Shown: positions 44,275-59,488 of the stretch, in pieces
Position numbering within the stretch: position 1 is the first letter of the stretch
Layout: every line of letters starts with the position of its first letter
Source of the DNA: a candidate division WWE3 bacterium RIFCSPHIGHO2_02_FULL_38_14
GTDB taxonomy: Bacteria > Patescibacteriota > WWE3 > UBA101185 > UBA10185
Direction of reading: 5' to 3'
Assembly: GCA_001772865.1 (NCBI GenBank)
Contig: MEVD01000003.1
Location: forward strand, 62,812 to 126,811
DNA length: 64,000 nucleotides
Position numbers and translations under genes: made by a program
The notes under the pieces: generated by a model
Database searches by the model: none
Told to the model about the DNA's origin: nothing
The model's input: only the letters and a program-made list of their open reading frames with translations

Positions 44275-45087
44275 ATGGCTAGAAAATTAGTATCAATAAT
44301 TGTACCCGCCTATAAAAAACAAGACACTATAAAACACGATATAGAAAACATATATGATGCTATGTGCCAGAGCAGATGGGACTTTGAAATTATTGTAGTG
44401 GTTGATGGTTTTGTTGATAGTACCTTTAAGCTGGCAAAAGAACTGGAAAAGAATGTTATTAGGGTGTTCGGGTATAAGACAAATAGAGGAAAAGGGTATG
44501 CTGTGAAATACGGAATGGCCAGAGCATTAGGGGATTATTTGGCTTTTATCGACGCGGGATTGGAAATAAATCCGAATGGAATTTCAATGATATTAGAACA
44601 TATGGAATGGTATGATGCGGATATTATTGTAGCCAGTAAACGACATCCGGTATCTAAAGTTCATTATCCTTTTACGAGAAAGTTATACAGCTGGGGATAC
44701 TTTACAATTATAAAATTATTATTTGGAGTAAAAGTACGCGATACCCAGACCGGTTTAAAAGTATATAGAAGAGAAGTACTGGAAGCGGTTATTCCCAGGC
44801 TGGTAATTAAAGAGTATGCCTTTGATATTGAATTACTGGCGGTGTCACACTATTTAGGATTCAGGAGAATATATGAAGCACCTGTCGAAGTGAAGTTTGA
44901 TTTTACTACTTCAAGAATTAAAGGATTTTTGATTTTTGATGAGTTTATCAGGAGAATGCTTCACGACACATTTGCGATATTTTACAGAATGCATATACTT
45001 AAGTATTACCACGATAATAATAAAAGGAAATGGGTTTATGATAAGGAATTGGAGATGCAGTTAAATACTGGTGAATCGGAAAAATAA
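44275..45087 (+). CDS. family 2 glycosyltransferase
   Basis: 270 aa. SIIVPAYKKQD, VVVDGFVDST, IDAG..; DxD context. Confidence 0.8.
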   Translation: MARKLVSIIVPAYKKQDTIKHDIENIYDAMCQSRWDFEIIVVVDGFVDSTFKLAKELEKNVIRVFGYKTNRGKGYAVKYGMARALGDYLAFIDAGLEINPNGISMILEHMEWYDADIIVASKRHPVSKVHYPFTRKLYSWGYFTIIKLLFGVKVRDTQTGLKVYRREVLEAVIPRLVIKEYAFDIELLAVSHYLGFRRIYEAPVEVKFDFTTSRIKGFLIFDEFIRRMLHDTFAIFYRMHILKYYHDNNKRKWVYDKELEMQLNTGESEK

Positions 45088-45100
45088 AATTATTAAGTCT

Positions 45101-46111
45101 ATGAAATTCAGCATAATTATTCCGGTCAGGTCTATAAACGATCATTTAAGAGAAAATATTGCGAATTTAAAACTGTTAAAATATGAAGATTTTGAAGTGA
45201 TTATCCTTACCGATAACACCGAATCTTATGATTTCGGCGACGGCAGGTTTAAACTGTTGGCTACGGGAAGTGTGGGTCCGGGAGAAAAAAGAAATGTCGG
45301 AGCGAATACTTCAACCGGCGATATTCTGGCTTTTCTGGACGATGATGCTTATCCCAAAGACGACTGGCTGAATAAAGCTTACGAAATATTTAAAGATAAG
45401 AGTATATATGCTCTTGGGGCACCGGCTATTACACCATTAAATGCCGGTTTTCTTGAAAGATGTTCGGGGAGGGTGTTGGAGTCGATTCTTTCTAGCGCTG
45501 GTACTGTTTACAGGTACGTGCCAATGTCTCGCAGAATTATTAACGATTATCCCACTGTAAACTTTTTGGTAAAAAAAGAAGCATTTTTGAGTGTGGGAGG
45601 ATTTATAAAAGATTTTTGGCCGGGAGAAGATACCAAACTATGTCTGGATTTAATTAATAAATTTGGAAAGGAGTTTATTTATGACCCTGCGCTTATTGTT
45701 TATCATCACAGAAGAAACTTATTCAGACCGCATTTAAAACAAATTTCAAGGTACGGTCAGCACCGCGGGCACTTCGCGAGAATATTTCCTGAAAATTCCA
45801 GGAATCCTTCATATTTTGTTCCATCTTTGTATATTTTGGGACTTGTGGCCGGACCGTTAGTATGTTTATTGATTCCTATTTTGTGGTTTGTTTATTTACC
45901 GGTTGTACTTATATATTTTATGTTAATATCGATTGAGGTTGTTCGTGTTTCAATAAAAGACAAATCTTTAAAAGTAGGGTTATATGTTGCCGGAGGGATA
46001 GTTTTAACACACATAGTTTATGGTGTAAACTTTATTATTGGATTATTGAAAAAGCCGGAATTGAAATTGAAAAAATTCGGGGGTAAGGCCGGGAATTACG
46101 TAGAAGGTTAA
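45101..46111 (+). CDS. family 2 glycosyltransferase with C-terminal TM helices
   Basis: MKFSIIIPV start at ATG 45101. LDDDAYP (DxD). Three or four C-terminal TM helices. Confidence 0.75.
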   Translation: MKFSIIIPVRSINDHLRENIANLKLLKYEDFEVIILTDNTESYDFGDGRFKLLATGSVGPGEKRNVGANTSTGDILAFLDDDAYPKDDWLNKAYEIFKDKSIYALGAPAITPLNAGFLERCSGRVLESILSSAGTVYRYVPMSRRIINDYPTVNFLVKKEAFLSVGGFIKDFWPGEDTKLCLDLINKFGKEFIYDPALIVYHHRRNLFRPHLKQISRYGQHRGHFARIFPENSRNPSYFVPSLYILGLVAGPLVCLLIPILWFVYLPVVLIYFMLISIEVVRVSIKDKSLKVGLYVAGGIVLTHIVYGVNFIIGLLKKPELKLKKFGGKAGNYVEG

Positions 46112-46188: not shown

Positions 46189-46455
46189 ATGGCAAGAGGG
46201 CAAAATGAGTTTACAACCGATCCGAAATCAAAAGTGAAAATTAAAGTGATAAATGAGCTTTGTATCAGCGCCGGGACTTGCATTATAAAAGCTCCTGGCA
46301 CATTTGACCTGGATGAAGCCGGTATTGCTTATGTTAAAGACGGCACTTGGGATGATGCTCTTGATATTATAGAAGCTGCCAAATCATGCCCAACCACAGC
46401 GATAATTATTGAAGATATGAATGGTAATCAGATTTGGCCGGCTAAAAAAGAATAA
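46189..46455 (+). CDS. small mono-cluster ferredoxin
   Basis: 88 aa. CISAGTCIIKAP...SCPTTAI Cys pattern of divergent 4Fe-4S/3Fe-4S ferredoxins. Strong SD (aggagg) upstream. Confidence 0.7.
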   Translation: MARGQNEFTTDPKSKVKIKVINELCISAGTCIIKAPGTFDLDEAGIAYVKDGTWDDALDIIEAAKSCPTTAIIIEDMNGNQIWPAKKE

Positions 46456-46456
46456 T

Positions 46457-47443
46457 ATGCATAAATCTACATTTTTCCTTATGAAACCGGATGGAAATAG
46501 TATTGGTAAAGCCAAAGAGTTGAACTTGGATTCTGTTTTTGCGAGTCACAAAAATTTGGATGAAATCGTTATAAAAACGTTGCGGGAAAATTTGAAGTCG
46601 GGTATTGAAATAAATGCGGAGGTTGGAGTATTTGCAGGAAAAGATTTGTGGGATAAATTTCCCGATGTCATTCCGGTTGAAGCAGGCGGAAAAGAACCTG
46701 CGAGAGGATGGTATTACGGAGTTTGTCCTTCACACGAAGGAGTAAGAAATGAATGTTTGCAGAATGTTAAAGCACTTTTAGAAAGAGACTTAAACGGAAT
46801 TTGGCTGGATTTTATAAGATATCCTACCAAATGGGAAGAACCTGAACCATATATATTAGATGTATGCTATTGCGACAGATGTCTGAAAAAATTCAGCGAA
46901 TATTTGGGTGAACCTATAGAAGGAAACACTTTGGAAGATAAAGTGCTACTAATTGACGGAAGTTATTATATTGAATGGATCGAATTTAAAACTGAAATGA
47001 TCACTTCAATGGTAAGAGAAGTCAGGAAGTTGATTGATGATCATAATAGAAATGTTCAAAATGATAAAAAGGTAAAGCTGGGATTTTTCGCTATTCCATG
47101 GCAGGATAAAGAACATAGTGCAGGAATTAAAAGAATAGTTGCGCAGGATTTTGGAGCGTTAAGTACTTTGGTGGATATTTACAGCCCGATGTTATACCAC
47201 AAAATGTGCGGAAAAGAAGTTTCGTGGATAAAGGAAATGGTTAATTATTTTTGGGAAGTAGGTAAACCTCAGCTGCCTTTGATTCAAACCGAGCCCCGCG
47301 AAAGTGAAATAAAAGTTGATGAATTTAAGCAGGCATTGGATTTTGCAGGTGCAAGCCCTTCAACCGGAGTATGTGTATTCTTTTTGGAAGATTTGATGAA
47401 ACAGCCTGAAAAGTTTGATACAGTAAAAGAGTATTTTAAGTGA
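46457..47443 (+). CDS. hypothetical protein, GHL10/DUF187-like (glycoside-hydrolase-like TIM barrel)
   Basis: VCPSHEGVRNECL...LNGIWLDFIRYP resembles the conserved GHL10 block. Start taken at ATG 46457 after the ferredoxin stop. Confidence 0.4.
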   Translation: MHKSTFFLMKPDGNSIGKAKELNLDSVFASHKNLDEIVIKTLRENLKSGIEINAEVGVFAGKDLWDKFPDVIPVEAGGKEPARGWYYGVCPSHEGVRNECLQNVKALLERDLNGIWLDFIRYPTKWEEPEPYILDVCYCDRCLKKFSEYLGEPIEGNTLEDKVLLIDGSYYIEWIEFKTEMITSMVREVRKLIDDHNRNVQNDKKVKLGFFAIPWQDKEHSAGIKRIVAQDFGALSTLVDIYSPMLYHKMCGKEVSWIKEMVNYFWEVGKPQLPLIQTEPRESEIKVDEFKQALDFAGASPSTGVCVFFLEDLMKQPEKFDTVKEYFK

Positions 47444-47449
47444 AAATCT

Positions 47450-48328
47450 TTATACTTTTTTAGCCACTACCAGCATAATATCGTATAAATTAATATTCAG
47501 GTTCGGTTTTAGAATTCCGGTTTTTTTAAGAAGTTTATAAAAGCTAAAAGCATATTTAATCTTATAAAAGGTAACTAATCTAAATAACAAATAATCCAGG
47601 GATAGTTGGATTGACGGGTATATAATCTCAACTACCTCAAAGCCTGACTCATTAAATATTCTGGTTATAGTGTTTTTGTCAAAATAAGAAAGGTGTTGTG
47701 GTATGTTGTATAAATGCCAGTATTTACCGCTAATTTTTGCAACAGTGCTTCCGACGTCTCCGGTAGTTAATGCGACTACACTGCCCTGTTTAGTCATTTC
47801 ACTAAGCTGCTGTAAAGTTTCTAACGGGTCCGAAACATGCTCAATAGTATCCCAAAGGGTAACAACATCAAATATTTGATTTATATAAGGCGAATCTTTA
47901 ATAACTCCCGCAAAAGCTTTTAAGTTTTTTTTCTTTGCCTGCTCAACTGCATATTCTGAAACGTCAACACCATAAACTTCCCACCTGGAAGATGCAACCT
48001 CCATAAAAGCACCTGTAGCACATCCTACATCGAGCAAGTTGCCGCCGCTATTATATTTACTCAAAATATCTACCCGGAATTTAAATGAATTCTTTAAACT
48101 TTCAGCTTCTTTTTCATAATCGCTGTAGGCATGTTTTATGCCGGGATCATTGAAAAAATCTTCAGCATAATAATTGGAAAAAAACTCATCGTCCGGATCA
48201 AAATTAAGAAAAGTCAGGCTGCATTCATTGCATTTCGCCAGTTCGTATCCGTATTTTATAAATAAAACATTGTAATTATTAGATTTGCAAAGCCGGCATT
48301 TATTTAGCTTTTTTATTGTAGTTTCCAT
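47450..48328 (-). CDS. class I SAM-dependent methyltransferase with N-terminal zinc-ribbon
   Basis: CRLCKS...CNEC zinc ribbon; LLDVGCATGAFM (motif I); VYGVDVSE (motif II). Start trimmed to the internal Met to limit overlap with the upstream GT2. Confidence 0.7.
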   Translation of the reverse strand: METTIKKLNKCRLCKSNNYNVLFIKYGYELAKCNECSLTFLNFDPDDEFFSNYYAEDFFNDPGIKHAYSDYEKEAESLKNSFKFRVDILSKYNSGGNLLDVGCATGAFMEVASSRWEVYGVDVSEYAVEQAKKKNLKAFAGVIKDSPYINQIFDVVTLWDTIEHVSDPLETLQQLSEMTKQGSVVALTTGDVGSTVAKISGKYWHLYNIPQHLSYFDKNTITRIFNESGFEVVEIIYPSIQLSLDYLLFRLVTFYKIKYAFSFYKLLKKTGILKPNLNINLYDIMLVVAKKV

Positions 48329-49040
48329 AATAATAGTTAAATAAAATTGAAGCCAGATCTTTTGATGACCGCCAAGTATCAATTATGGTAGAAACAGTAC
48401 TTCCTTCTATATGATACCAGCTCACTGGCAGCTCTTTGATTGAAAAGCCCAGTTTTTTTGCAAGAAATAATGTTTCAGAATCATATGCGAACCTGTTTAT
48501 TCTTTGTTTTTCAAAAACTGATTTAGCGGCGTTTGCTTTAAACCCTTTGAAGCCGCAAGTTATATCGGTAAAGTTTAATCCAAGAAAAATATTAGTAATA
48601 AGTGTATACCCTTTACCCAGAATCCTTCGCGGTGCATTTTGGCTTTTTTTTGTTTGAGTTAAAAAATGTTTTTTTGAACCAATAACTATATCATATTCGT
48701 CTAATTCCTTAATAAATTTATGCATTTCTGCTAAATCTATAGAAATATCAGCATCCATTACAATAATTTTCCCTCCCTTGCTGGCAAGAACGCCTAATTT
48801 TACCGCGTGTCCTTTACCCTGATTTTGTGAATAACTTACGATTTGAATTGGAATGTCGGAATACTGATTTTTCAAATCTTCGAGTAAATTAATAGTGTTG
48901 TCTGTAGATCCGTCATTAGCCAATACCAACTCAAACGGGTCTTTTAACTCTTTTAACATGTAGTCGATGGCTGTGGTCATCCTGCTTTCGGATTTCATTC
49001 TTTTTTCTTCGTTATAAAATGGTATTACTACGCTTAGCAT
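48300..49040 (-). CDS. family 2 glycosyltransferase (polyprenyl-phosphate sugar synthase-like)
   Basis: 246 aa. LSVVIPFYNEE, LVLANDGSTDNT, VMDADIS. Confidence 0.8.
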   Translation of the reverse strand: MLSVVIPFYNEEKRMKSESRMTTAIDYMLKELKDPFELVLANDGSTDNTINLLEDLKNQYSDIPIQIVSYSQNQGKGHAVKLGVLASKGGKIIVMDADISIDLAEMHKFIKELDEYDIVIGSKKHFLTQTKKSQNAPRRILGKGYTLITNIFLGLNFTDITCGFKGFKANAAKSVFEKQRINRFAYDSETLFLAKKLGFSIKELPVSWYHIEGSTVSTIIDTWRSSKDLASILFNYYYGNYNKKAK

Positions 49041-49212
49041 ATCAAACCGTTTAAATTGTTAACGTAAAATAGTATATCACGCGCAAATGGGGTTTTTTAT
49101 TATTCTTTTTGGATGAATTAATCGAATAACCTTATAGTACTGTTTACATGTTATTTATATTAATTCAAAATATGATAATTCTACAGAGTAGACACCTCGA
49201 AAGGAGAGGAAG

Positions 49213-49983
49213 GTGACTGAGATTATCTTTAATGTGGCAAACGCTTTTCCTATTGGGGCGTTCAGGATGGGGAAGGTGATAGAGATCGTACTAGCTGATG
49301 GGTACGATCGCGTAAGTGTACTGCCCACATGGGGTTTACCAGCCCAGAATTTCAAATTAAGCCCCTGGATTCGATGCGCGGAACAGCCTTGGAACCCCGG
49401 ATCGCCTTGGGCATGGTTTCATGGTTTTATGACGCGCAACTTAAAAAGTCCGAGGCTTCATGATGTGCTCCTTTTTCCTTGATATAAAGAGTGGTGGATG
49501 CCACTTTGGGAGCGGATCAAGAGGTGGGGTGCAACTCCATTTGTTCACTCATATGCGGAGGTACCTGGGCTAGTTGAAGTTCACCCTGCAATGAGATTGA
49601 GTGGCGAATCCGCCGTTGCGATGGCTGAGGTGACTAACAGGCTGCTTGTTTTCGACACGATGCATGCTGTCCGTGGGCTTCGACCGGGAGATTTGAAGCC
49701 TGGTGAATCTCTGGATAGTAAGCTTGGGGATTGGTGATTGTGGATGGGAGTCGCCGTGGCGACTAACAGACTCGGATTATTCGATTTTCACCCGACTCCT
49801 ACACAATTAGCCAAAGGCGAGTTGGATGAGCCGCTTTCAATGCTCAGATTCGCCCTGAACCGCGGGTACAAAGGTCCCATACGCGTCGAAGCGGTGTTAC
49901 CCAGGCTTGTCGACCAAGCGGTTCACTGGCGTCTAGTTGCCCACCGAATGCTCAACCTTGTACACAACGAGCTCGAATCCTAA
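49213..49983 (+). other. GC-rich island ORF: 257-codon frame with strong SD and GTG start, interrupted only by two in-frame TGA codons (49480-49482, 49735-49737). Candidate UGA-recoded gene, very recent pseudogene, or structured RNA.
   Basis: Three consecutive ORF-track ORFs (49213-49482, 49498-49737, 49738-49983) lie in the same frame. AAGGAGAGG sits 6 nt before the GTG. An upstream TAG closes the frame at 49189. Local GC is far above the flanking sequence. No recognisable protein family. Confidence 0.3.
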
Positions 49984-49991
49984 TCTCGATT

Positions 49992-50026
49992 CCTCCCCGC
50001 AAATGCCCCTTGCGTGGAGGTTTCTA
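49992..50026 (+). terminator. rho-independent terminator closing the GC-rich island
   Basis: CCUCC-C-CGCAA-AUGCCCC-UUGCG-U-GGAGG nested hairpin followed by UUUCU, 9 nt after the TAA at 49981-49983. Confidence 0.55.
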
Positions 50027-50109
50027 ATATCAAATCATAGGTAAATCTAAAGGATTTTCAGTGAAAATAAAATAAATTTATATACATATTTATAACTATC
50101 TATACAACC

Positions 50110-50138
50110 TTGCCACACATAAATTAATCATGTATTAT
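50110..50138 (+). promoter_or_regulatory. candidate promoter TTGCCA-17-TATTAT for the radical SAM gene
   Basis: The -10 element overlaps the annotated ATG at 50137. If this promoter is used, the transcript would begin near the second in-frame ATG (50146), giving a leaderless mRNA. Confidence 0.3.
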
Positions 50139-51828
50139 GACAAATATGTTCAAAATAGCTGTAGGCTATCCGCCCATCGAAACTAACAAAGGTGTTCCGC
50201 TTCTTTCCCAAAACCGACAATTTCAGTATTTCAATGCACCTACTTATATCTATCCAATGGTGCCTGCATATGCTGCATCACAAGCTAAAGCTAAAGGATA
50301 CAATGTTGTATGGGTAGACGGTATCGCGGCTAAACAAACTTATTCACAATGGCTTGAACAGCTTGATCGGGAAAAACCCGACCTTTTAATGATTGAAACA
50401 AAATCGCCAGTAGTAAAACAACACTGGAGAATAATAACTGATCTCAAACAAAAATTCCCGAATATGCTCATAACTTTAGTAGGTGATCACGTTACTTATG
50501 CTCCAAAAGAAACAATGGACAACAGTCCGGTTGATTATATAATTACTGGTGGTGATTACGATTTTATGCTTTCAGATTTGGCCAATTCAATAACCAAAGG
50601 TGATAAACTTGTGGGTGGTATTTGGGGGCGCAAAAGCGACCAAAAAGTTTCTTTGGGAGAATTAATTAAGTACGAAGATTCTCAAGTGAACGGAAATGAA
50701 GCATATTGGGTTTCCGGACCATTAAAACAAACTCACAATCTAGACGAACTGCCGTTTGTTGACCGCGACCTCACTCATTGGGAGTACTATGCCTATGAAA
50801 ACGGAAATTATAAGTACACTCCCGCCACATATATGTACTCCGGTAAGGACTGCTGGTGGAACAGATGTACTTTCTGTGTGTGGGATCATACGATAAATGC
50901 GATTGGAACTTATAGAAGATTCACTCCCGAAAGATTGTTTGCCGAGGTTAAACATGTAGTTGACAAATACGGTGTCCGCGAAATATTTGATGATGCCGGA
51001 ACTCTTTTTGTAGGTCCTCCTCTTAAAAAATTCTGTAACATGCTAATTGAATCCGGCTACAATAAAAAAGTGATTTACGGCTGCAATATGAGATTAAACG
51101 CTTTAACACAGGAGTATTATGATTTAATGGGTAAGGCTAATTTCAGGTTTATATTGTATGGTATGGAATCCGGTAACCAAAAAACTCTGGACATGCTGGA
51201 TAAAGGATTAAAAATTCACCAAATAGAAGAAGGAGTAAGAATGGCTAAAAAAGCCGGCCTCGAACCACATTTAACAATTATGCTTGGGTATCCATGGGAA
51301 TCTGAGGAAGACGCCAAAAATACTATTGCCTTATCAAAAAGACTTTTCAAAGAGGGTTATGTAGATACTATGCAGGCTACAATTGTAATTCCATATCCTG
51401 GAACGCCTCTTTACAAACAATGTATAGAAAACAACTGGTTATTGGTTGATCCTACCGACTACGAAGCCTTTGATATGAGAGGTCCAGTTATGAAGATACC
51501 TTTTGCACATGAAAGACTTTATGAACTTACACAGGAACTATATTCTTCGTTTTTTACGCCTCAGTATGCTTTGAGAAAGCTTAAGGCGGTACGCAAATGG
51601 GATGATATTAAGTTTTTAGTTTATTCAGCGAAGAAACTTATGGGTCATCTGCTTGACTTTGATGAAGAGCAGACCAAGGTAAGTATGTCTTCTCCTACGT
51701 TCTGGATAAACGCCTTTAAGAGTATGTTTACTCATTTGAAAGAGAAAAAAGAAGATAAAACTATTGAGGTAACAATTAAAGAAAGTGCTGAAGCAGAAGT
51801 TAAAGCTAAATCCGAAGTTAAAATATAA
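50137..51828 (+). CDS. cobalamin (B12)-binding domain / radical SAM enzyme (class B rSAM-like, candidate C-methyltransferase)
   Basis: 563 aa. N-terminal Rossmann-like B12-binding domain. rSAM core with Cys triad DCWWNRCTFC (Cx4Cx2C spacing, not Cx3Cx2C). GMESGNQ SAM-binding region. Confidence 0.75.
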   Translation: MTNMFKIAVGYPPIETNKGVPLLSQNRQFQYFNAPTYIYPMVPAYAASQAKAKGYNVVWVDGIAAKQTYSQWLEQLDREKPDLLMIETKSPVVKQHWRIITDLKQKFPNMLITLVGDHVTYAPKETMDNSPVDYIITGGDYDFMLSDLANSITKGDKLVGGIWGRKSDQKVSLGELIKYEDSQVNGNEAYWVSGPLKQTHNLDELPFVDRDLTHWEYYAYENGNYKYTPATYMYSGKDCWWNRCTFCVWDHTINAIGTYRRFTPERLFAEVKHVVDKYGVREIFDDAGTLFVGPPLKKFCNMLIESGYNKKVIYGCNMRLNALTQEYYDLMGKANFRFILYGMESGNQKTLDMLDKGLKIHQIEEGVRMAKKAGLEPHLTIMLGYPWESEEDAKNTIALSKRLFKEGYVDTMQATIVIPYPGTPLYKQCIENNWLLVDPTDYEAFDMRGPVMKIPFAHERLYELTQELYSSFFTPQYALRKLKAVRKWDDIKFLVYSAKKLMGHLLDFDEEQTKVSMSSPTFWINAFKSMFTHLKEKKEDKTIEVTIKESAEAEVKAKSEVKI

Positions 51829-51869
51829 TACATTTTTAACTACCTCCTAATGTATGTAATAATATCCTT

Positions 51870-54164
51870 ATGCCGCGAAAATTACTTCCTTATGCCGCAA
51901 TAATTGCTTTTATAGGCTTGGTATATATTAGAAATATTCTCCCGGTAAAAGGATTTCAAACCTTCATTTTCGGGGATTCTGCTATATATGCCCTGCAAGT
52001 TACAGGGTTGGCTAAAAACTTTTCGTCTGTTTTCGGATATAAGGATAATATTTTATTTTGGAATCCTTCTTATTTATCTGTAGGTATTCCTACAGCTTCG
52101 GTTATTGATTTTGGGGTTTTTTATCCGATTAACATTTTTATTGCCTTTATAGCTTTCTTAATCAAGAACCTTTTTATTACCTTTGACCTTTATACATTTT
52201 CGATATTTGCTCACCTGGTTTTTGGCAGCACTTTTGTTTATAAAATATTGAAAGACTTTTGGAAACTTAATCCGAAAATCGCTTTAATAGGCGCCTTTAT
52301 CTGGTCATTTAACGGTTATAATACTGAGTTTATGTCGGCCTCAGCAATTTTTCTTGCAGCTTCGTATCTTCCTGCATGTTTTTATTTCACCCTAAAATTG
52401 TTGGAATCAAACAAGTTTAAGTATTTTCTTATTTATCATTTGCTTCTTGCTTTTAGCTTTTTGTCCGGTTATGTCATTGTTCCTGTGATTATATTATTAT
52501 TTTGTTCTTTTTATTATATTTTTGCACAGTCTGCCTTAAGCAAGAAGAAAAAAGCAATAAAGTTGCTAATAGGATTACTTCTAATAACACTACCTTTAAT
52601 TGCTCCATTATATTTTTCTACATATATTAACTTTCCTTATAGTTTGAGGTCATTAAATTTAGATTTGGAAAGTTTTTTATTTAATTCGGCAAAAATTAGA
52701 AATTTAAAAGAATCAGTGTTTCCTACAAACACACCGTTTAATGACTTAAGTAAAACTAACCAAGTATTTTTATATTTTAGTCTTACTGGTCTTTTGTTGC
52801 TGATTTTGAATCGTAGTTATAGAAATATATTTTCCGATAATAGAAACAAGTTGCTGTTAATTTTTGGATTTTTAGGTTTATTAATTGCAATTGGTAAATA
52901 CGGACTGATTTCTTACTTGTTGTATTATATTCCCGGCATCGGGCTTTTTAGAAGATTGTCTGTTTTTTCTTTAGTTCCGTTATTTACTTATTCTATATTA
53001 ATTCCACAGATATTAAGAAATATATATGAACTTAAGAACTTTAAATTTACTTCTGTATTTAAAGTAATTCTCATTGTTAGTGTTTTTATCTTTTTTATTA
53101 CTTCTTATTTATATTTAACAAGACAGCCTTTAGAGATTGAAGTATCTTCTTTTTATACGTCATTTATTACAGGATTCGCTGTTCTTGTAATTGTGGCAGT
53201 TTCTTACAAACTAAGACGGCTTAATAATAACTATTTATTATACGGGCTAATATTGGCACTGTTTATTGAAGCATTGATAAATATATCCTCAAAAGCATTT
53301 ATAAATTCAAAAATTAATCCTAAAGACATGTTTATACCCAATTCTCTTATGACAAGTTTAATGAATATGGTAGAAGAAGGTGAAAGAGTTAATGTTTTGC
53401 ATACTCATTACAACTACAGCACGAGTCATATAAATTTGGATCAGACAGCCGGATATGTTTCACTCGCAAGCCTTTATGGTGGAAAAATAAATGAATATCT
53501 TGAGTCTGCCGATTCGGAGAATAAAAATTTGAAGGATCTGCTCGGAGTTAAATATGTAATAAATAAAGTCAGTAAAACTGATTCGAACCTAAAAATAATT
53601 GAAAAAGAAGATTCATCAGAATTTTACGAATTCAACTATTTAAACCTCGAATGGGAAAAAGAGAAATCCCAGGATGTTTATGCACTATATTCGCGGGAAA
53701 CCAATTTGCCACGCTTGTATGTTGCTTCACAGGTGGAAAAATCAGATCAATCAGTTCTATTATTGGATAAAATACGCAGTTCTAAAGAAAATGCAGTTGT
53801 TTTTATTGATGAGGAAGTGCCTGCTGATATAACCAGATCTTCAGAGGTTAAAATACTGGAAATTAAAAGAAATTATCTTCGGGCTGAAGTAAAAAGCGGT
53901 GGAAGTGTATTTTTAGCAAATTCAACGGGGTATTATCCCGGGTGGAAAGTAAAAATTAACGGAGAATGGCATAATCCCATTCAAACTAATTGGTTTATGC
54001 AGGGGATATTTTTAAATTCCGGATTTAATGTTGTGGAATTTTACTATATACCATATGGTATTATATTGGGGTCGATTTATTTATTTACAGCTTTGTTTAT
54101 TTGGATTTTATATTTTGCTTTAAGGGTAAGACTAAATGCATTTATTAAAAAGAAGTCTGACTAG
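51870..54164 (+). CDS. large polytopic membrane protein (YfhO/GT-C-like)
   Basis: 764 aa. About 13 N-terminal TM helices, a large extracytoplasmic domain, and a C-terminal TM anchor. Confidence 0.4.
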   Translation: MPRKLLPYAAIIAFIGLVYIRNILPVKGFQTFIFGDSAIYALQVTGLAKNFSSVFGYKDNILFWNPSYLSVGIPTASVIDFGVFYPINIFIAFIAFLIKNLFITFDLYTFSIFAHLVFGSTFVYKILKDFWKLNPKIALIGAFIWSFNGYNTEFMSASAIFLAASYLPACFYFTLKLLESNKFKYFLIYHLLLAFSFLSGYVIVPVIILLFCSFYYIFAQSALSKKKKAIKLLIGLLLITLPLIAPLYFSTYINFPYSLRSLNLDLESFLFNSAKIRNLKESVFPTNTPFNDLSKTNQVFLYFSLTGLLLLILNRSYRNIFSDNRNKLLLIFGFLGLLIAIGKYGLISYLLYYIPGIGLFRRLSVFSLVPLFTYSILIPQILRNIYELKNFKFTSVFKVILIVSVFIFFITSYLYLTRQPLEIEVSSFYTSFITGFAVLVIVAVSYKLRRLNNNYLLYGLILALFIEALINISSKAFINSKINPKDMFIPNSLMTSLMNMVEEGERVNVLHTHYNYSTSHINLDQTAGYVSLASLYGGKINEYLESADSENKNLKDLLGVKYVINKVSKTDSNLKIIEKEDSSEFYEFNYLNLEWEKEKSQDVYALYSRETNLPRLYVASQVEKSDQSVLLLDKIRSSKENAVVFIDEEVPADITRSSEVKILEIKRNYLRAEVKSGGSVFLANSTGYYPGWKVKINGEWHNPIQTNWFMQGIFLNSGFNVVEFYYIPYGIILGSIYLFTALFIWILYFALRVRLNAFIKKKSD

Positions 54165-55371
54165 GAAAGAAAAAAAGTTAGTTGCGTTTTTATCTATACT
54201 ATTGGTACTGTTTTCGTCTCTTTATATATTCTTAATTGAACCTGTTATCACAATTTATAAATACGCAAATAAAATTCCGGCTAAAATAGCCTTTGTAGAA
54301 CGAGCGGTGAGATCGCAGGATTTCAGGTTTCTGCCCTTTGAAATTGAATATTTAAAGGAAGATTTTGTAGTAATAGACCAGGCGGCAACCCGTCTTTCGG
54401 TTTTCAAGCCGGTTCCGTTTATTGGTTCATATGTGTCGGATGTAAAAGTTTTCACTTCGGTAGCTGTAGATATGATTGATACTACCTACGGCATGCTTTT
54501 ATATATGGATGATGTAATTCCGAATCTTTCATTTACAGGATGGAGTGACAATTCTGTCTCGCAGGAAGTAGTAATAAACCAACTCAGCTCCTTTTTAACT
54601 GAATACCTGCCGTTGTATAAAGAAAGAATTAAAACAATTAATGAGAGGGTAATGACAGTTGATACTTCAAAATATCCGGAAGTAATAAAAGGTATAGAAG
54701 TCAGGTCAAGCCTTGAACAGATAAAAGGATTAACAATCAATTTTACAAATTCATTTGATGTACTTGGTGAATTAGTCGGTGATTTTCCCAGTTTAACGGG
54801 AACATCAGTTCCGAAGAATTATTTATTTCTGCTTTCTTATGGATCCAAACCCCAAACTGAAAAATTTGTGGCGTATGCGGTGTTCAGAGTTAACGGTACA
54901 AATGTAAGTATAGTTAGAACAGGCGATGTCGGTCTACTGGGACAGCAATTAACTAAATTTATAGAACCGGGTAAAGAACTTGAAGCTATATGGGAAAAGG
55001 CTTTAAGTGATGTTGGACTGGAAGGAATAGTTGTCATTAACGATCAGGTTATTAAATCCATTGTTGGGGTGATCGGAAAAGTCAATGCTAATGAACTTGG
55101 TGATATTACCGCCGAAAATGTTCAGGAGAACTTGCTGAAATTTTATGAAAATGCTGGAAAAAGGGATCTGCAGAGTAAAAAAGAGAAAAGTTCGGTGGGT
55201 ACCCTGCTATTTAACTTAATTAAAGAAGCCATTTCAACCGCAAGTTTGCACAAAAAAGCCGAGCTTATAAAGGCATTAATTAATGAAAGAAATAACGGAA
55301 ATATTTCATTTTATTTTGAAAACGAAAAACTTCAGAATTTGGTAGAGTTTAAGAATTTTGAATATAATTGA
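54136..55371 (+). CDS. membrane-anchored extracytoplasmic protein (DUF4012-like)
   Basis: 411 aa. Single N-terminal TM, then a soluble domain. Overlaps the upstream gene by 29 nt. Confidence 0.35.
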   Translation: MHLLKRSLTRKEKKLVAFLSILLVLFSSLYIFLIEPVITIYKYANKIPAKIAFVERAVRSQDFRFLPFEIEYLKEDFVVIDQAATRLSVFKPVPFIGSYVSDVKVFTSVAVDMIDTTYGMLLYMDDVIPNLSFTGWSDNSVSQEVVINQLSSFLTEYLPLYKERIKTINERVMTVDTSKYPEVIKGIEVRSSLEQIKGLTINFTNSFDVLGELVGDFPSLTGTSVPKNYLFLLSYGSKPQTEKFVAYAVFRVNGTNVSIVRTGDVGLLGQQLTKFIEPGKELEAIWEKALSDVGLEGIVVINDQVIKSIVGVIGKVNANELGDITAENVQENLLKFYENAGKRDLQSKKEKSSVGTLLFNLIKEAISTASLHKKAELIKALINERNNGNISFYFENEKLQNLVEFKNFEYN

Positions 55372-55421: not shown

Positions 55422-56387
55422 ATGTACAACCAGTTTTGGAAAAATAGATCTGTATTAGTGACCGGTGGTACTGGTCTTCTAGGTTCGGAGTTAGTTAAAC
55501 AGTTGGTTGAGAGTGAGGCTAATGTAGTAACTGCGGTTAGGGACAACGTTTCTAAATCCCGTTTTTTTATAGAAAATCTTCATGAGAAGGTCACGGTTGT
55601 TCATGGAGATGTTATTGATTTTCCATTTTTAGAAAGAGTAATTGGTGAATATGAAATTGACACTGTTTTCCATTTGGCGGCTCAAACAATTGTAAGGATT
55701 GCAAATAACTCACCGTTGTCTACATTTGAAAGTAACATGCGAGGCACCTGGAATGTTCTTGAAGCCGCAAGACTGCACTCTAAAAAAATCAGATCAGTAG
55801 TAGTGGCTTCATCTGATAAAGCATATGGAGAGAGTAAAACCCTTCCATATGACGAAGAGACCCCGCTAAAAGGAAAATACCCATATGACGTTTCAAAAAC
55901 ATGCACGGATTTAATTGCTCAAAGTTACTGGTATACCTTTAAAATGCCGGTAAATATTACAAGGTGCGGAAATCTATTCGGTCCGGGAGATTTAAATTTC
56001 AGTAGAATTATTCCTGGTACGATACTTTCGGTTAAAAGAAATGAACCTCCAATAATAAGAAGCGACGGAAAATTTATTAGAAATTATTTCTATACCAAAG
56101 ACGCGGCTTCGGGATATTTGACTATTTCTGAAAATGTTGAAAATCATGCGGGCGAAGCATTTAATTTGGGAACTGAAGAACGATTTTCGGTAATTGATAT
56201 TACAAAGATGATTTTAAAATTAATGGGTTCAAGCCTTGAACCTGTGATTAAAAATGAGGCGACAAATGAAATATACGAGCAGTATTTAAATATTAATAAA
56301 GCAAAAGAAAAGCTGAGGTGGACTGCTAAATACTCTACTGAAGAAGCCTTAAAAGAAACTATCAACTGGTACACAAAATATGTCTAA
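55422..56387 (+). CDS. rfbG: CDP-glucose 4,6-dehydratase-like NAD-dependent dehydratase
   Basis: N-terminal FWKNRSVLVTGGTGLLGS, HLAAQTIVR, SSDKAYGE, and the YPYDVSKTC catalytic YxxxK region parallel RfbG/DdhB. Confidence 0.7.
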   Translation: MYNQFWKNRSVLVTGGTGLLGSELVKQLVESEANVVTAVRDNVSKSRFFIENLHEKVTVVHGDVIDFPFLERVIGEYEIDTVFHLAAQTIVRIANNSPLSTFESNMRGTWNVLEAARLHSKKIRSVVVASSDKAYGESKTLPYDEETPLKGKYPYDVSKTCTDLIAQSYWYTFKMPVNITRCGNLFGPGDLNFSRIIPGTILSVKRNEPPIIRSDGKFIRNYFYTKDAASGYLTISENVENHAGEAFNLGTEERFSVIDITKMILKLMGSSLEPVIKNEATNEIYEQYLNINKAKEKLRWTAKYSTEEALKETINWYTKYV

Positions 56388-57714
56388 TCATCTAAGAGAA
56401 GAAATTCTTTCTCTTGTTAAAAAATACCATGACGAGAACTTTAATAAGGTATTAATAGCGGGTGAAAGTTATATACCTCCGTCAGGGAAAGTTTTCGGTT
56501 TTGAGGAAGTGCGTAATCTTGTAGATGCATCCTTAGACTTCTGGCTTACTGAGGGAAGATTCAACGAACAGTTTGAAAAAGAACTGGCGGAATTTATAAG
56601 TGTGAATTTCTGTGCTACTGTTAATTCCGGATCATCAGCGAATTTGCTGGCATTTTATGCCTTAACATCAAGGGAATTCGGCTCGAGGGCAATTAAAAAA
56701 GGCGACGAAATTATTGAAGTTGCTACGTGTTTTCCAACAACTTTAAACCCTGTTTTACAGTTTGGATGTATACCTGTATTAGTTGATGTAGAAATCCCAG
56801 CTTATAATGCTTCTGCTAAAAATGTTTTAAGTGCTGTTACAGACAAAACAAAGGCGATATTTCTTGCCCATACTTTAGGTAATCCTTACGAAGTGGAAGA
56901 AATTGCCAAATTCTGCAAAGAAAAAGGTATTTGGCTGATTGAGGACTGCTGTGACGCTTTAGGAGCTGAATATGGCGGCAAAAGAGTCGGGTCTTTTGGA
57001 GATGTGGCAACTTTGAGTTTTTATCCCGCTCATCAAATTACCTGCGGTGAAGGTGGCGCTGTTTTAACCAACAATGCTCTGCTAAATAAAATGGTAAGGT
57101 CTTTTAGAGACTGGGGCCGCGATTGCTGGTGCGCACCGGGGAACGAGAATACATGCGGTATTAGATTTAACTGGCAGTTGGGAACATTACCTCGGGGGTA
57201 TGACCACAAATACATTTATAGTCATATCGGTTTCAATTTAAAAATGACTGATTTGCAGGCATCTGTAGGTTTAGCTCAAATGCAAAGGGTTGGGGGATTC
57301 ATAAAAAAAAGAAGAGAAAATCATAATCTTCTAATTGAATATTTAAAAAAATATGAAGATTATTTTATTATGCCCGAGGCTACTGAAAATAGTAATCCGT
57401 CATGGTTCGGTTTTGTAATTACGATAAAAGACGGAGCACCGTTTACGAGGACAGATTTGATCAGATATTTAGAAAATCATAAAATAGGTACGCGGCTACT
57501 TTTTGCCGGTAATATAACAAGACAGCCCGCCTATAAAGATATTGAATTTATAGTACACGATAAGTTAGTTAATGCCGATAAAGTAATGAATGACACTTTT
57601 TGGATAGGTTGCTATCCGGCAATTAATGAAGATATTATAAAATATGTTAGTAAAACTTTTGAAGAATTTATATCACTTTCCGAGAAAGGAATTATAAATG
57701 CCAAAGCCAATTAA
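56380..57714 (+). CDS. rfbH: CDP-4-keto-6-deoxy-D-glucose-3-dehydrase (E1; RfbH/DdhC family, DegT-type PMP enzyme)
   Basis: 444 aa. SGSSANLLA, CFPTTLNP, AHTLGNP, IEDCCDALG, FYPAHQITCGEGGAV, FRDWGRDCWCAPG..NTCG (E1 Cys cluster), HKYIYSHIGFNLKMTD. A His occupies the usual PLP-Lys position, as in E1. Confidence 0.8.
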   Translation: MSNHLREEILSLVKKYHDENFNKVLIAGESYIPPSGKVFGFEEVRNLVDASLDFWLTEGRFNEQFEKELAEFISVNFCATVNSGSSANLLAFYALTSREFGSRAIKKGDEIIEVATCFPTTLNPVLQFGCIPVLVDVEIPAYNASAKNVLSAVTDKTKAIFLAHTLGNPYEVEEIAKFCKEKGIWLIEDCCDALGAEYGGKRVGSFGDVATLSFYPAHQITCGEGGAVLTNNALLNKMVRSFRDWGRDCWCAPGNENTCGIRFNWQLGTLPRGYDHKYIYSHIGFNLKMTDLQASVGLAQMQRVGGFIKKRRENHNLLIEYLKKYEDYFIMPEATENSNPSWFGFVITIKDGAPFTRTDLIRYLENHKIGTRLLFAGNITRQPAYKDIEFIVHDKLVNADKVMNDTFWIGCYPAINEDIIKYVSKTFEEFISLSEKGIINAKAN

Positions 57715-57748
57715 GACAAAGGTTTCTAAAGCTATTACAAAATCTAAA

Positions 57749-58471
57749 ATGGCAGAGATGCCCGTAGTTATATTTTGCGGAGGGATGGGAAGCAGAATTA
57801 GAGAAGAAACCATAGATAAACCCAAGCCTATGATAAATGTAGGTGGAAAGCCAATATTATGGCATATAATGAAAATGTACAATCATCAAGGTTATAATAA
57901 CTTTATTTTAACTTTGGGTTACAAAGGTGACTATATTAGGGATTTTTTAAAAAGTACCCAGGGGAAGATTTTTGAACCTTTTAATATAACTTTAGCTGAA
58001 ACCGGTGTGGATACACCTACGGGCGGGCGGCTTCTTAGATCCGCGGATTTTATTAAGACAGACACATTTTTATGCACATATGGGGACGGATTCAGTGATG
58101 TGGATTTAAATAAGGTCTTGGATTTTCATAATAACAGGGATATGGTGGCTACATTGACTAGTGTCTGTATACCTCATAAATTCGGAATAATATCATTTTC
58201 CAAGGCAGGACAATTGAAAAATTATAAAAAAGGACATTTAATGAAGGAACCCATTAACGCCGGATTTTTTGTTTTCACTAAAAAATATTTTGATTACTTA
58301 ACCGACGACATGATGATTGAGGACCCGTTTAATGCCGTTGCAAAAGATAAAAAATTCGGAGTCTATTTTCATGACGGATATTTTGGTGCTGTAGATACAT
58401 ATAAAGATTTAGAAGATTTAAACGACTTGTGGAATAATAAAAATCCACCTTGGAAGGTTTGGGAGGACTAA
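57749..58471 (+). CDS. rfbF: glucose-1-phosphate cytidylyltransferase
   Basis: MPVVIFCGGMGSRIREETIDKPKPMINVGGKPILWHIMKMY closely parallels the RfbF/DdhA N-terminus. Start taken at the internal Met (57749). Confidence 0.8.
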   Translation: MAEMPVVIFCGGMGSRIREETIDKPKPMINVGGKPILWHIMKMYNHQGYNNFILTLGYKGDYIRDFLKSTQGKIFEPFNITLAETGVDTPTGGRLLRSADFIKTDTFLCTYGDGFSDVDLNKVLDFHNNRDMVATLTSVCIPHKFGIISFSKAGQLKNYKKGHLMKEPINAGFFVFTKKYFDYLTDDMMIEDPFNAVAKDKKFGVYFHDGYFGAVDTYKDLEDLNDLWNNKNPPWKVWED

Positions 58472-58474
58472 TCA

Positions 58475-59488
58475 GTGAAAAATTCTCATCTCTCGGTTTC
58501 TATTGTAATGCCTACTTTAAACTCAATGAGAACTTTGGATGCCTGTTTGAAATCTATTCGTAGTCAGAATTATTCTCAGGAAAAAATAGAGATTTTAATT
58601 GTCGACGGTGGTTCAACAGATGCTACTAAACAGACAGCAGAAAAGTATAATTGCAGATTTATAGAAGGTGAATATAGAGATAATCAAGAACCGAGAAAAG
58701 GAATCGGTCTTTTAAATGCTAAAAATGATTTGGTTGCATATATTGATTCAGATAACATCCTTCCGGATAAAGAATGGATAAACCAATCTATAAAACCATT
58801 TTCAGAGGTTTCAGACTTAACCGGCACTGAAACTTTGAGGTATGGTTTAATGCCGGGTTTTGCCTATTTTAACAGATATTGTGCTTTGATTGGAGCAAAT
58901 GATCCGGTAGCTTTATATTTAGGGAAAAGCGAAAAACTGTCGTGGCTTTATAATGAGTGGCAAATAACTCCAGTAAAAGAAAAACACGACGGATATTTTA
59001 TAGTCGAGTTTAATGAGAGTAATATGCCTACCTTGGGTGGAAACGGATATTTTTCATGGAGGGAATTGATGCTCAAGTCCAATTGTCAGCCCGACCAGTA
59101 TTTTCATATTGACGTTGTAATGGATCTGGTGAAACTCGGGTATACTAAGTTTGCTATGGTAGAAAATGAAATTTACCATGATACCGCTGCAAGTTTGAAT
59201 AAATTAACTTCAAGAAGAAAAACATATTTTAAAACCCACAATCCAATGTATGGGAACAGAAGATATTTGTTGTTTAATCCTGCTAAAAAGAGTGATGTGT
59301 ACAATCTTTTTCTATTCGTTGTTTATTCTGCAACTTTTATTCAGCCTATTTTGTTTTCATTGAGAGGCTTTTTCAAAAAAAGGGATTTAGCTTGGTTTTT
59401 GCACCCTGCGGTATGTTTTTCCTTTATGTGGGCTTATTCTGTAGCTACAATTTCTCTTATTTCAAATCGGTTGAATAAAAATAAGTAA
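58475..59488 (+). CDS. family 2 glycosyltransferase with C-terminal TM segments
   Basis: SIVMPTLNS, LIVDGGSTDAT, IDSDN. Confidence 0.75.
   Translation: MKNSHLSVSIVMPTLNSMRTLDACLKSIRSQNYSQEKIEILIVDGGSTDATKQTAEKYNCRFIEGEYRDNQEPRKGIGLLNAKNDLVAYIDSDNILPDKEWINQSIKPFSEVSDLTGTETLRYGLMPGFAYFNRYCALIGANDPVALYLGKSEKLSWLYNEWQITPVKEKHDGYFIVEFNESNMPTLGGNGYFSWRELMLKSNCQPDQYFHIDVVMDLVKLGYTKFAMVENEIYHDTAASLNKLTSRRKTYFKTHNPMYGNRRYLLFNPAKKSDVYNLFLFVVYSATFIQPILFSLRGFFKKRDLAWFLHPAVCFSFMWAYSVATISLISNRLNKNK

Follow-up and report, generated by a model that had tools for sequence, protein, structure and literature searches.

The question raised by this locus is which reaction a radical SAM enzyme of a WWE3 bacterium might perform and which of the surrounding genes are its partners. 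The window, that is, the whole analysed stretch of 64,000 nucleotides, contains three neighbouring genes on the plus strand that a first-pass annotation had put forward, and these were confirmed at 50137-51828 (563 aa), 51870-54164 (764 aa) and 54136-55371 (411 aa). They had been read, together with an adjacent sugar-nucleotide module, as a pathway to a possibly C-methylated or otherwise radical-modified glycan component. The genomes of CPR bacteria are minimal, and it is through their surfaces that the cells attach to hosts; despite this reduction, WWE3 genomes retain the cofactor-hungry enzyme with a private ferredoxin. No account of this family was found in the literature on CPR/Patescibacteria dealing with radical SAM, glycan or B12.

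Family and cluster motif of the radical SAM protein

The likely start codon of the radical SAM gene is at 50146, giving a protein of 560 aa that begins with MFKIAVGYPP and matches NCBI protein P0002. The product scored 62.1 bits with the Pfam family Radical_SAM (PF04055, gathering threshold 29.5), and it has the partial TIM-barrel fold that characterises this family. Canonically, radical SAM enzymes carry their cluster motif as Cx3Cx2C in the barrel loop that follows beta-1. Here, the motif read from the translation is C239-WWNR-C244-TF-C247 (50851..50877, plus strand), that is, Cx4Cx2C; this spacing is kept in 120 of the 120 best homologues, and the three cysteines are invariant in an alignment of 65 sequences (A1). 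The spacing, singled out earlier as atypical, is real and conserved but not unprecedented, since OxsB carries CDYSRCTFC in place of CWWNRCTFC (PMC9204698). Relatives scoring higher on the HpnJ model carry Cx3Cx2C.

The best match among curated families was HpnJ (TIGR03471, 154.7 bits), followed by BchE (TIGR02026, 88.7 bits), and HpnJ was also the top curated family for every relative tested. These scores are far under the respective cut-offs of 577.6 (an equivalog model) and 481.35, as are those for the AprD4 family (NF033070, 38.6 versus 500) and for the B12/radical SAM family of ladderane-type lipid biosynthesis (TIGR04072, 45.8 versus 360). The protein is therefore ruled out as a BchE, HpnP or HpnJ orthologue, and any chemistry derived from HpnJ or AprD4 stands by analogy only. 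The hopanoid genes shc, hpnH, hpnI and hpnK were absent from the annotated parts of the window and from the related loci. A look-up of cluster members returned only generic database names for the distant relatives ('YgiQ', 'BchE-like', 'radical SAM protein'). Judged by these comparisons, the enzyme is a member of an uncharacterised, very conserved HpnJ-like subfamily with class-B architecture.

Conserved operon and variable neighbours

Synteny was compared over 25 WWE3 loci and two DPANN loci (L026, L027); the locus of strain RBG_16_37_10 (L038) was fetched later. The conserved block begins upstream with three GT-C paralogues, PMT_2-like by Pfam (38275-39879, 39863-41344 and 41341-42969), and a MOP-family flippase (42932-44251), all on the plus strand, with 8-12 predicted transmembrane (TM) segments each and syntenic in 12-16 WWE3 loci. 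They are followed on the same strand by a soluble family-2 glycosyltransferase (GT2a, 44275..45087) resembling the polyprenyl-phosphate sugar synthases ArnC, PgfS, PpgS and AglJ, which is 58-66% identical in 17 WWE3 loci and has a 30% homologue in the two DPANN loci, and by a membrane-anchored one with two C-terminal TM segments (GT2b, 45071..46111; Pfam GT2 and Glyco_trans_2_3), which is MftF- and AglG-like. GT2b had no HpnI match at E <= 0.001 and was rejected as an HpnI orthologue. Next come an 88-aa single-cluster ferredoxin (46189..46455, plus strand; CxxAxxC...CP; Fer4_13 36.7 bits, Fer4_15 33.1 bits) and, as an optional member, a DUF4015/GHL10-type glycoside-hydrolase-like protein (46421..47443, plus strand), homologues of which carry PF13200, PF02638 and PF14871; its gene lies between those of the ferredoxin and the radical SAM enzyme in 11 loci. 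Downstream, the conserved partner is a further GT2 (GT2c, 58475..59488, plus strand), present in 13 loci and located immediately after the radical SAM gene in L005, L012, L013, L015 and L024.

Conservation within the block is highest for the radical SAM enzyme (72-97% identity), above every neighbouring glycosyltransferase; its most widely conserved partner is GT2b, found in 20 WWE3 loci and in 22 of the 27 loci overall. Homologues of the two proteins are encoded side by side in bacterial loci of three other lineages (L029, L032, L035); in the DPANN loci the GT2b homologue lies 0.8-1.3 kb upstream, separated by one or two small ORFs. The ferredoxin, probably the reductant of the radical SAM cluster, has a homologue (60-78% identity) upstream of the enzyme in 21 of the 25 WWE3 loci, directly adjoining it in L006, L016, L018, L019 and L025. 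Around the homologues in DPANN and other distant lineages, tblastn found none; in L037, a FAD_binding_6 redox protein abuts the radical SAM gene where WWE3 has the ferredoxin. Distant homologues are always located in glycan clusters (GT2, GT-C/PMT, Wzy, Bac_transf, NDP-sugar enzymes), those of L029 and L036 holding four or five paralogous radical SAM genes. In several lineages (L001/L023, L032, L036) a class-I methyltransferase gene comes immediately after the radical SAM gene. On the evidence of gene order, the enzyme and its own small ferredoxin are part of an envelope glycosylation operon conserved across WWE3. The general idea of a radical-modified glycan component stands, the enzyme being found in glycan-biosynthesis clusters in every lineage that could be examined.

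The two genes that follow the radical SAM gene at this locus are strain-specific cargo which, like the CDP-sugar genes beyond them, this genome has in common only with its closest strains. The first encodes a 764-aa, YfhO-like and GT-C-like membrane protein, for which the earlier label holds in part: the protein is polytopic (about 10 predicted TM segments) and reaches the gathering threshold of YfhO (PF09586, 29.4 versus 28.5 bits), but the match covers only residues 657-736, aligned with the last 80 profile positions; a PMT_2 match scored 20.7 bits. The second product (411 aa), with a single predicted N-terminal TM segment, is nearly an orphan, having only 4 homologues among 5.8 billion proteins. 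Its likeness to DUF4012 is remote, with 18.6 bits against a gathering threshold of 28 (PF13196), although one distant homologue (P0425, 21% identity) carries this domain. Beyond them lies a variable CDP-hexose cassette (55422..58471, plus strand) of a 4,6-dehydratase-like protein, RfbH and a glucose-1-phosphate cytidylyltransferase-like protein. The ORF 56380-57714 exceeded the cut-off for RfbH, CDP-6-deoxy-D-xylo-4-hexulose-3-dehydrase (NF011936, 683.5 versus 423 bits), and the dehydratase (195.5 bits) and cytidylyltransferase (217.3 bits) were under theirs.

The radical SAM, YfhO-like and DUF4012-like proteins and the CDP-dideoxyhexose cassette might form one functional module, given their common strand and short gaps (51828 to 51870, with an overlap at 54136/54164), the same arrangement in L038, and a faint or weak YfhO-like gene near distant radical SAM homologues in L029 and L036. 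However, none of the 27 loci first compared has a YfhO-like homologue within 10 kb of the radical SAM gene, the protein being common only to the 96%-identical strain L038, whose orthologue also has a YfhO match. A homologue of the nearly orphan DUF4012-like protein occurs in 1 of the 27 loci, as a weak match (29% identity), and CDP-sugar genes adjoin the radical SAM gene only in L011 (again 1 of 27) and L038. The radical SAM protein itself is 72-84% identical across genomes without these genes. Synteny thus largely refutes the single-module reading, which we regard as highly improbable, and the partners first assigned to the enzyme were the wrong ones. Because GT2c directly follows the radical SAM gene in many genomes, the YfhO-like, DUF4012-like and CDP-dideoxyhexose genes are, as far as synteny can tell, a separate strain-variable glycan cassette inserted between the two.

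On its other side, the radical SAM gene is separated from the ancestral operon by a minus-strand pair encoding a class-I methyltransferase (47450-48382) and a PgfS/CsbB-like GT2 (48300-49040), which is not at this position in other loci. Since the 3.7 kb between the ferredoxin and the radical SAM gene include these two opposite-strand genes, co-expression is not assured here. A GC-rich insertion of about 0.87 kb (49160..50045, plus strand, about 52% GC), missing from L004, contains an ORF (49213-49983) with two in-frame TGA codons that is intact in L038. In this 96%-related strain the two TGA positions read TGG and CGA, so the window copy is a pseudogene, and an alternative code with TGA as a sense codon was rejected. 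The ORF had no Pfam match and no phage match by tblastn, and Rfam returned no match (whole window at gathering, 49000-50200 at E <= 1), so the stretch is not a known RNA. What had been called an island terminator is a stable hairpin at the end of the insertion (49992-50020, -17.6 kcal/mol, z -4.9), but its U-tract is poor and it belongs to the strain-specific insertion. The adjoining region (50086..50138, plus strand) holds a degenerate clade-specific 20-nt element (50086-50105) and a promoter-like site, TTGCCA-17-TATTAT (50110-50138). The generic sigma-70/terminator scan was not above the shuffled expectation (32 promoter-like sites versus 37.7 in shuffled sequence) and by itself gives no support to the gene having its own promoter; however, a TTGACN-17-TA(G/A)TCT element directly upstream of the radical SAM gene is conserved in relatives.

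Candidate substrate and reaction

Our favoured reading, held tentatively, is that the enzyme belongs to the core of a WWE3-wide envelope glycosylation operon and performs a radical change of a sugar without methyl transfer. That a sugar on a membrane-linked glycan undergoes radical modification appears well supported, because the pair of GT2b and radical SAM genes recurs in DPANN archaea and other bacterial glycan clusters. The data show the fold, the motif, the family placement, the synteny and the link to the ferredoxin; substrate, chemistry and cofactor use are what we infer. In the order GT-C (three genes), flippase, GT2a, GT2b, ferredoxin, optional DUF4015 protein, radical SAM enzyme and GT2c, GT2a would charge polyprenyl phosphate with a sugar, and the membrane-anchored GT2b would extend this lipid-linked sugar or glycosylate a lipid acceptor. 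With C239, C244 and C247 as its ligands, the [4Fe-4S] cluster would be reduced by the 88-aa ferredoxin, and the substrate radical might be resolved without methyl transfer, either in the way proposed for HpnJ, Cds and OxsB, by rearranging the sugar or contracting its ring, or in the way of AprD4, by dehydration or deoxygenation. The modified lipid-linked sugar would then be flipped and passed by the three GT-C paralogues to envelope acceptors. The C-terminal TM helices of GT2b and the resemblance of GT2a to polyprenyl-phosphate sugar synthases speak for this reading; the substrate could be a nucleotide sugar instead of a lipid-linked one. A more specific proposal, speculative and rather doubtful, is that the module of GT2 and HpnJ-like radical SAM enzyme, present in WWE3, some DPANN archaea and other uncultivated bacteria and provided with a dedicated ferredoxin in WWE3, makes a carbocyclic (cyclitol-type) or carbon-skeleton-rearranged sugar from a polyprenyl-phosphate-linked hexose, which the tandem GT-C enzymes would put on the envelope.

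The N-terminal domain (about aa 1-160, 50137..50616, plus strand) is a Rossmann domain, probably of the cobalamin-binding type, judged by PF02310, the structure model and profile alignment. The first-pass annotation had it as cobalamin-binding; the Rossmann domain is clear in the model, with five parallel strands, but the PF02310 match is just under gathering (30.6 versus 32.1 bits). In class B enzymes, the DMB tail is held by a 'Gly-Gly' on beta-4 and a 'Gly-Glu' where alpha-5 begins (PMC9204698). These motifs are partly kept, G116-D117 and G139-D140 occupying the 'GG' and 'GE' positions and aligning with GGPH and GEGE of TokK and MgmA. Cobalamin is at most a candidate cofactor; the similar domain of AprD4, the nearest relative in structure, does not bind it.

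It is possible, if somewhat doubtful, that the enzyme is a cobalamin-dependent C-methyltransferase acting in the same glycan pathway on an unactivated carbon of a lipid-linked or nucleotide-activated sugar. Such a role would suit the class-B architecture, the profile alignment through the cobalamin domain with OxsB, TsrM, TokK and CysS, and the placement of Gly116 and Gly139-Asp140. Characterised class-B enzymes are mostly methylases (PMC12931638), HpnJ groups with Fom3 and MoeK5 in a published similarity network (PMC9204698), and the glycan context is equal for both readings. The alignment of the N-terminal domain with OxsB, TsrM and CysS fits methylation as well as it fits a reaction without methyl transfer. 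However, HpnJ and BchE, the curated families closest in sequence, and AprD4, the closest in structure, are not methylases, and the C-methylation first suggested has no specific support. The sub-gathering PF02310 match also counts against it, as does the fact that no gene for cobalamin uptake or synthesis was seen within the 64-kb window; the separate class-I methyltransferase following the radical SAM gene in several lineages neither requires nor excludes a radical SAM methylase.

The substrate might also be non-carbohydrate, such as a membrane lipid (the polyprenyl carrier or some other) or a protein that is secreted or sits in the envelope, the location then reflecting general envelope biogenesis. 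The class-B-like relatives HpnP, HpnR and the ladderane and GDGT enzymes modify lipids (PMC13459092), the lipid-biosynthesis family TIGR04072 gave its 45.8-bit match, and the multiple paralogues in L029 and L036 resemble tailoring cascades. We consider this unlikely, since it is a GT2 glycosyltransferase gene, rather than any lipid or peptide gene, to which the linkage is tightest and widest, since the surroundings hold no conserved gene for a precursor peptide or for lipid synthesis, and since an aminoglycoside sugar is the ligand of the best structural relative.

Should a lipid-linked sugar be rearranged or methylated by the enzyme, this would define an unknown envelope sugar, and radical sugar chemistry of the HpnJ, Cds or AprD4 type, so far tied to specialised lipids and antibiotics, would extend to envelope glycosylation in general. 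Formation of a carbocyclic or rearranged product would be the first case of a radical SAM step within core envelope glycosylation, and the product an unknown surface sugar of ultra-small, host-dependent cells. The genes of GT2a, GT2b, the ferredoxin and the radical SAM enzyme make a compact four-gene set that can be expressed and assayed. The group containing WWE3 is generally credited with minimal biosynthetic capacity (PMC8672522); a need for cobalamin would, in our view, point to its scavenging.

Comparison with known systems

HpnJ aligns with the present protein from end to end (residues 38-502 against profile positions 32-464 of 472), shares its two-domain architecture and likewise has a GT2 partner making a membrane-bound glycoside, HpnI in hopanoid clusters and GT2b here. 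It differs in the low family score, in the Cx3Cx2C spacing of higher-scoring relatives, and in its hopanoid genes and HpnI, which have no counterpart in the annotated parts of the window. CPR bacteria, to which the host belongs, are not known as hopanoid makers. HpnJ, a hopanoid-associated B12-type radical SAM protein, is proposed to contract bacteriohopanetetrol-glucosamine to a cyclitol ether, a reaction known from genetics only (PMC13459092).

AprD4 (PDB 6FD2), the 1,2-diol dehydratase of apramycin biosynthesis, acts on the sugar ring of a glycoside and is both the best profile-to-PDB sequence match (168 bits) and the best structural match, although identity is about 15%, the NF033070 score is low, and its N-terminal domain, which binds no cobalamin, is unmatched at the sequence level. 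Its partner is the reductase AprD3, in secondary metabolism and not in an envelope operon. OxsB (PDB 5UL2-4), which is cobalamin-dependent and contracts a deoxyribose ring, has the same cluster spacing and a sugar substrate, and the alignment with it covers its cobalamin domain and barrel (query profile positions 38-362); unlike the present protein, it is 744 residues long, with additional domains at both termini, and has a nucleotide substrate and a natural-product context. Sulfolobus needs the radical SAM protein Cds (calditol synthase, Saci_1489) to form a cyclopentyl polyol head group from a lipid-linked hexose, and both Cds and HpnJ are proposed to contract lipid-linked hexoses (PMC13459092). 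Compared by description only, Cds would perform the kind of reaction suggested by the HpnJ-like reading, but it comes from an archaeon and has a tetraether lipid as its substrate.

A radical SAM enzyme with a ferredoxin is, to our knowledge, part of no three-component glycosylation system described. In its general plan, the conserved block resembles such systems (CsbB/GtcA/YfhO, Pgf and ArnC/ArnEF/ArnT), in which a cytoplasmic GT2 makes a polyprenyl-phosphate sugar, a flippase translocates it and an external GT-C transfers it, and it differs from them in having three GT-C paralogues in tandem.

Family, cluster motif and fold of the radical SAM protein

The observations of the first-pass annotation are largely correct. 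The three ORFs that it had linked, encoding a radical SAM (rSAM) protein (50137-51828, plus strand, 563 aa), a YfhO-like protein (51870-54164, plus strand, 764 aa) and a DUF4012-like protein (54136-55371, plus strand, 411 aa), are all present in the window at the coordinates given. The first scores 62.1 bits against Pfam Radical_SAM, over the gathering threshold. The window derives from a genome of candidate division WWE3 (Patescibacteria/CPR), and the rSAM protein matches A3F07_00855 of WWE3 RIFCSPHIGHO2_12_FULL_38_15 with 100% identity. The Cx4Cx2C motif was borne out (C239-WWNR-C244-TF-C247); its spacing is kept in all of the 120 best homologues, and C239, C244 and C247 are invariant in an alignment of 65 sequences. 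This spacing, described as atypical, is real but has a precedent in OxsB (CDYSRCTFC). In the clade at large, the loop enclosed by the first and second cysteines varies (Cx3, Cx4, Cx7 and longer), and some full-length members (P0143, P0144, P0148, P0151 and P0154, 31-38% identical to the query) lack all three cluster cysteines and may be catalytically dead paralogues.

The family is uncharacterised, and no curated family cut-off was reached in the family profile search. The top curated family was HpnJ, which aligned end to end at 154.7 bits against a cut-off of 577.6, followed by BchE (88.7 bits), then ApyD, PhpK and others; TIGR04072, proposed earlier as a classification check, gave 45.8 bits and did not reach its cut-off. 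HpnJ was also the best match, always under cut-off, for every more distant relative tested. The alignment-based AlphaFold model is confident (pLDDT 93.5, pTM 0.92) and predicts, from the N-terminus on, a Rossmann domain of five strands, the radical SAM barrel and a helical region at the C-terminus. The nearest solved structure on all three measures, including Foldseek (E 2.6e-20) and a profile-to-PDB sequence search (168 bits), is AprD4, a radical SAM 1,2-diol dehydratase whose target is the paromamine sugar; MgmA/QCMT, TsrM, CysS, TokK and OxsB are ranked behind it.

Conserved and variable neighbours

The genomic context was compared by ORF clustering in 25 WWE3 loci and two DPANN archaeal loci, and in this set the conserved neighbours lie on the upstream side of the rSAM gene. 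They are three GT-C/PMT_2-like membrane transferases and a MOP-family flippase (38275-44251 in the window), a GT2 resembling polyprenyl-phosphate sugar synthases (GT2a, 44275-45087), an MftF/AglG-like GT2 with two predicted C-terminal TM helices (GT2b, 45071-46111), an 88-aa ferredoxin whose three-Cys motif is CxxAxxC...CP (46189-46455) and, in roughly half the loci, a glycosidase-like protein of the DUF4015/GHL10 type (46421-47443). Another GT2 (GT2c, 58475-59488) is often located directly 3' of the rSAM gene. Homologues of the ferredoxin, at 60-78% identity, occur in 21 WWE3 loci; in five of these (L006, L016, L018, L019 and L025) the gene directly adjoins that of the rSAM protein, and in L005, L008, L014 and L015 the DUF4015-like gene is the sole separator. 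The ferredoxin is likely the electron donor of the rSAM protein. It did not figure in the first-pass annotation.

In the window, the rSAM gene is cut off from the ancestral operon by two minus-strand genes, one for a methyltransferase and one for a PgfS-like GT2, and by a GC-rich insertion just upstream of it (49160-50045, about 0.87 kb, about 52% GC versus roughly 35% for the genome). One reading frame (49213-49983) runs through the insertion, interrupted by two in-frame TGA codons. In strain RBG_16_37_10 (L038, 96%-related) these codons are TGG and CGA and the ORF, of 256 aa, is intact; in a 97%-related locus (L004) the insertion is entirely missing. It gave no Pfam, Rfam or phage matches. 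It resembles a recent acquisition, a gene of unknown function now in decay in the window strain.

The YfhO-like, DUF4012-like and sugar-nucleotide genes, previously regarded as partners of the rSAM gene, are not conserved: across the 27 loci there is no homologue of the YfhO-like protein, a single weak match to the DUF4012-like protein and one locus with the CDP-hexose genes. They are shared only with the 96%-identical strain L038 and make up a variable cassette, an insertion that separates the rSAM gene from GT2c. The 764-aa protein is a polytopic membrane protein (about 10 predicted TM segments) whose YfhO match is borderline and confined to the C-terminus, with a weak match to PMT_2. The 411-aa protein, with a single predicted N-terminal TM segment, is a near-orphan with four homologues among 5.8 billion proteins; it scores 18.6 bits for DUF4012 against a gathering threshold of 28, and one of the four homologues carries PF13196. 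The CDP-hexose genes (55422-58471, plus strand) include a clear RfbH and lower-scoring 4,6-dehydratase and cytidylyltransferase matches. Neither an E3 (RfbI/AscD-type) reductase nor a terminal 4-reductase or epimerase was seen in this cassette. Its 3,6-dideoxyhexose pathway looks incomplete or has unrecognised partners.

The rSAM gene is also flanked by a PgfS/CsbB-like GT2 (48300-49040, minus strand) and the YfhO-like GT-C protein (51870-54164, plus strand), both of which sit in strain-specific insertions. Together these two resemble a CsbB/YfhO-type three-component glycosylation system, and this system is a more natural partner of the YfhO-like protein than the rSAM protein is.

Sequence elements upstream of the gene

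The rSAM gene had been said to have its own promoter and to follow an island terminator. The hairpin is real (49992-50020, -17.6 kcal/mol) and sits where the inserted GC-rich element ends. As to the promoter, a generic promoter/terminator scan was not above chance, although comparison of loci did reveal an element upstream of the start codon. In 14 of 26 WWE3 loci, TTGACN-17-TA(G/A)TCT occurs no more than 110 nt ahead of the rSAM start, and a 20-nt motif mostly contained in TTGACN-17-TAGTCT, ATATTTATAATAGTCTATAT, lies immediately upstream of the gene in 16 WWE3 loci with at most 4 mismatches (window 50086-50105, L012 807-826, L017 9985-10004, L018 9943-9962, L025 9952-9971 and others). Comparably close matches elsewhere number only a handful in all locus sequence compared; the sole other one in the window (24852-24871, minus strand, 3 mismatches) lies in the gap that separates a CAP-domain gene from the first GT2 of the glycosylation island. 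Since the motif is often just 8-13 nt from the ATG, without a Shine-Dalgarno sequence, it may mark a near-leaderless transcript or a regulator site. The window copy is degenerate, and a different site, TTGCCA-17-TATTAT (50110-50138), adjoins the start codon. Given gene-specific upstream elements across WWE3 loci, it is plausible that the rSAM gene is served by an internal promoter.

Glycan context and the proposed reaction

A GT2b homologue (25-32% identical, full length) also accompanies the rSAM homologue elsewhere: it is the direct neighbour in three further bacterial lineages, and in the two DPANN loci it is 0.8-1.3 kb upstream, separated by one or two small ORFs. The DPANN rSAM homologues (Pacearchaeota and Woesearchaeota; L026 9929-11503 and L027 9227-10798) are 46-47% identical to the WWE3 enzyme and have GT2a- and GT2b-like genes nearby, suggesting that the module has been exchanged between ultra-small bacteria and archaea.

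Every distant homologue with usable context sits within a glycan cluster: four B12-type rSAMs with GT2, PMT, a faint YfhO-like match and NDP-sugar enzymes (L029); GT2, rSAM, methyltransferase and a PMT_2-like gene (L032); an rSAM gene followed by Bac_transf (L034); five rSAMs with YfhO-like proteins, methyltransferases and glycosyltransferases (L036); and FAD_binding_6, rSAM and GT2 within a cluster that resembles an O-antigen locus and has Wzy and heptose genes (L037). The earlier view of a glycan-associated radical enzyme was right in kind but wrong about its partners, and the rSAM protein probably belongs to a glycan pathway; a non-carbohydrate substrate is improbable. In L037 (7351-9515) the genes for the FAD_binding_6 protein (216 aa) and the rSAM homologue overlap by one base at the stop/start junction, and the former occupies the place that the ferredoxin has in WWE3. 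A redox partner beside the rSAM gene recurs, as a ferredoxin in WWE3 and a flavoprotein in L037. No description of a GT2–ferredoxin–rSAM unit within a core CPR glycosylation operon was found in the literature searched, and as far as that literature goes this conserved unit is undescribed.

The multi-rSAM clusters (L029 2252-12556 and L036 4549-14123) belong to other uncultivated bacteria; their rSAM genes are mostly paralogous and B12-type, one in L036 being SPASM-type, and are interleaved with GT2, GT1, PMT, YfhO-like and methyltransferase genes. These clusters look like radical tailoring cascades on glycans.

In the proposed pathway, GT2a and GT2b would make a membrane-bound glycoside, the ferredoxin would reduce the rSAM cluster, the radical would be resolved, and the product would be flipped and then transferred by the GT-C paralogues. 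Evidence on cobalamin points in both directions. Where an N-terminal cobalamin-binding domain was proposed earlier, the model has a Rossmann domain, and the B12-binding Pfam match (30.6 bits) is just under the gathering threshold of 32.1; the B12 part of the earlier interpretation is unsupported. AprD4 does not bind cobalamin (PMC12931638). The family profile aligns across the N-terminal domain with the true cobalamin domains of OxsB, TsrM and CysS, whereas the N-terminal domain of AprD4 gives no such alignment. The class-B 'GG' and 'GE' positions, as defined in PMC9204698, are G116-D117 and G139-D140.

The sequence families and the structure that come closest are without exception non-methylases, which leaves the C-methylation reading of the first-pass annotation unsupported; cobalamin-dependent C-methylation would agree with the likeness to true cobalamin domains and is ranked second, as somewhat less likely than a non-methylating outcome. 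In view of these non-methylase relatives a non-methylating outcome is tentatively favoured, which by analogy might be a rearrangement of the HpnJ/Cds/OxsB type or a dehydration of the AprD4 type.
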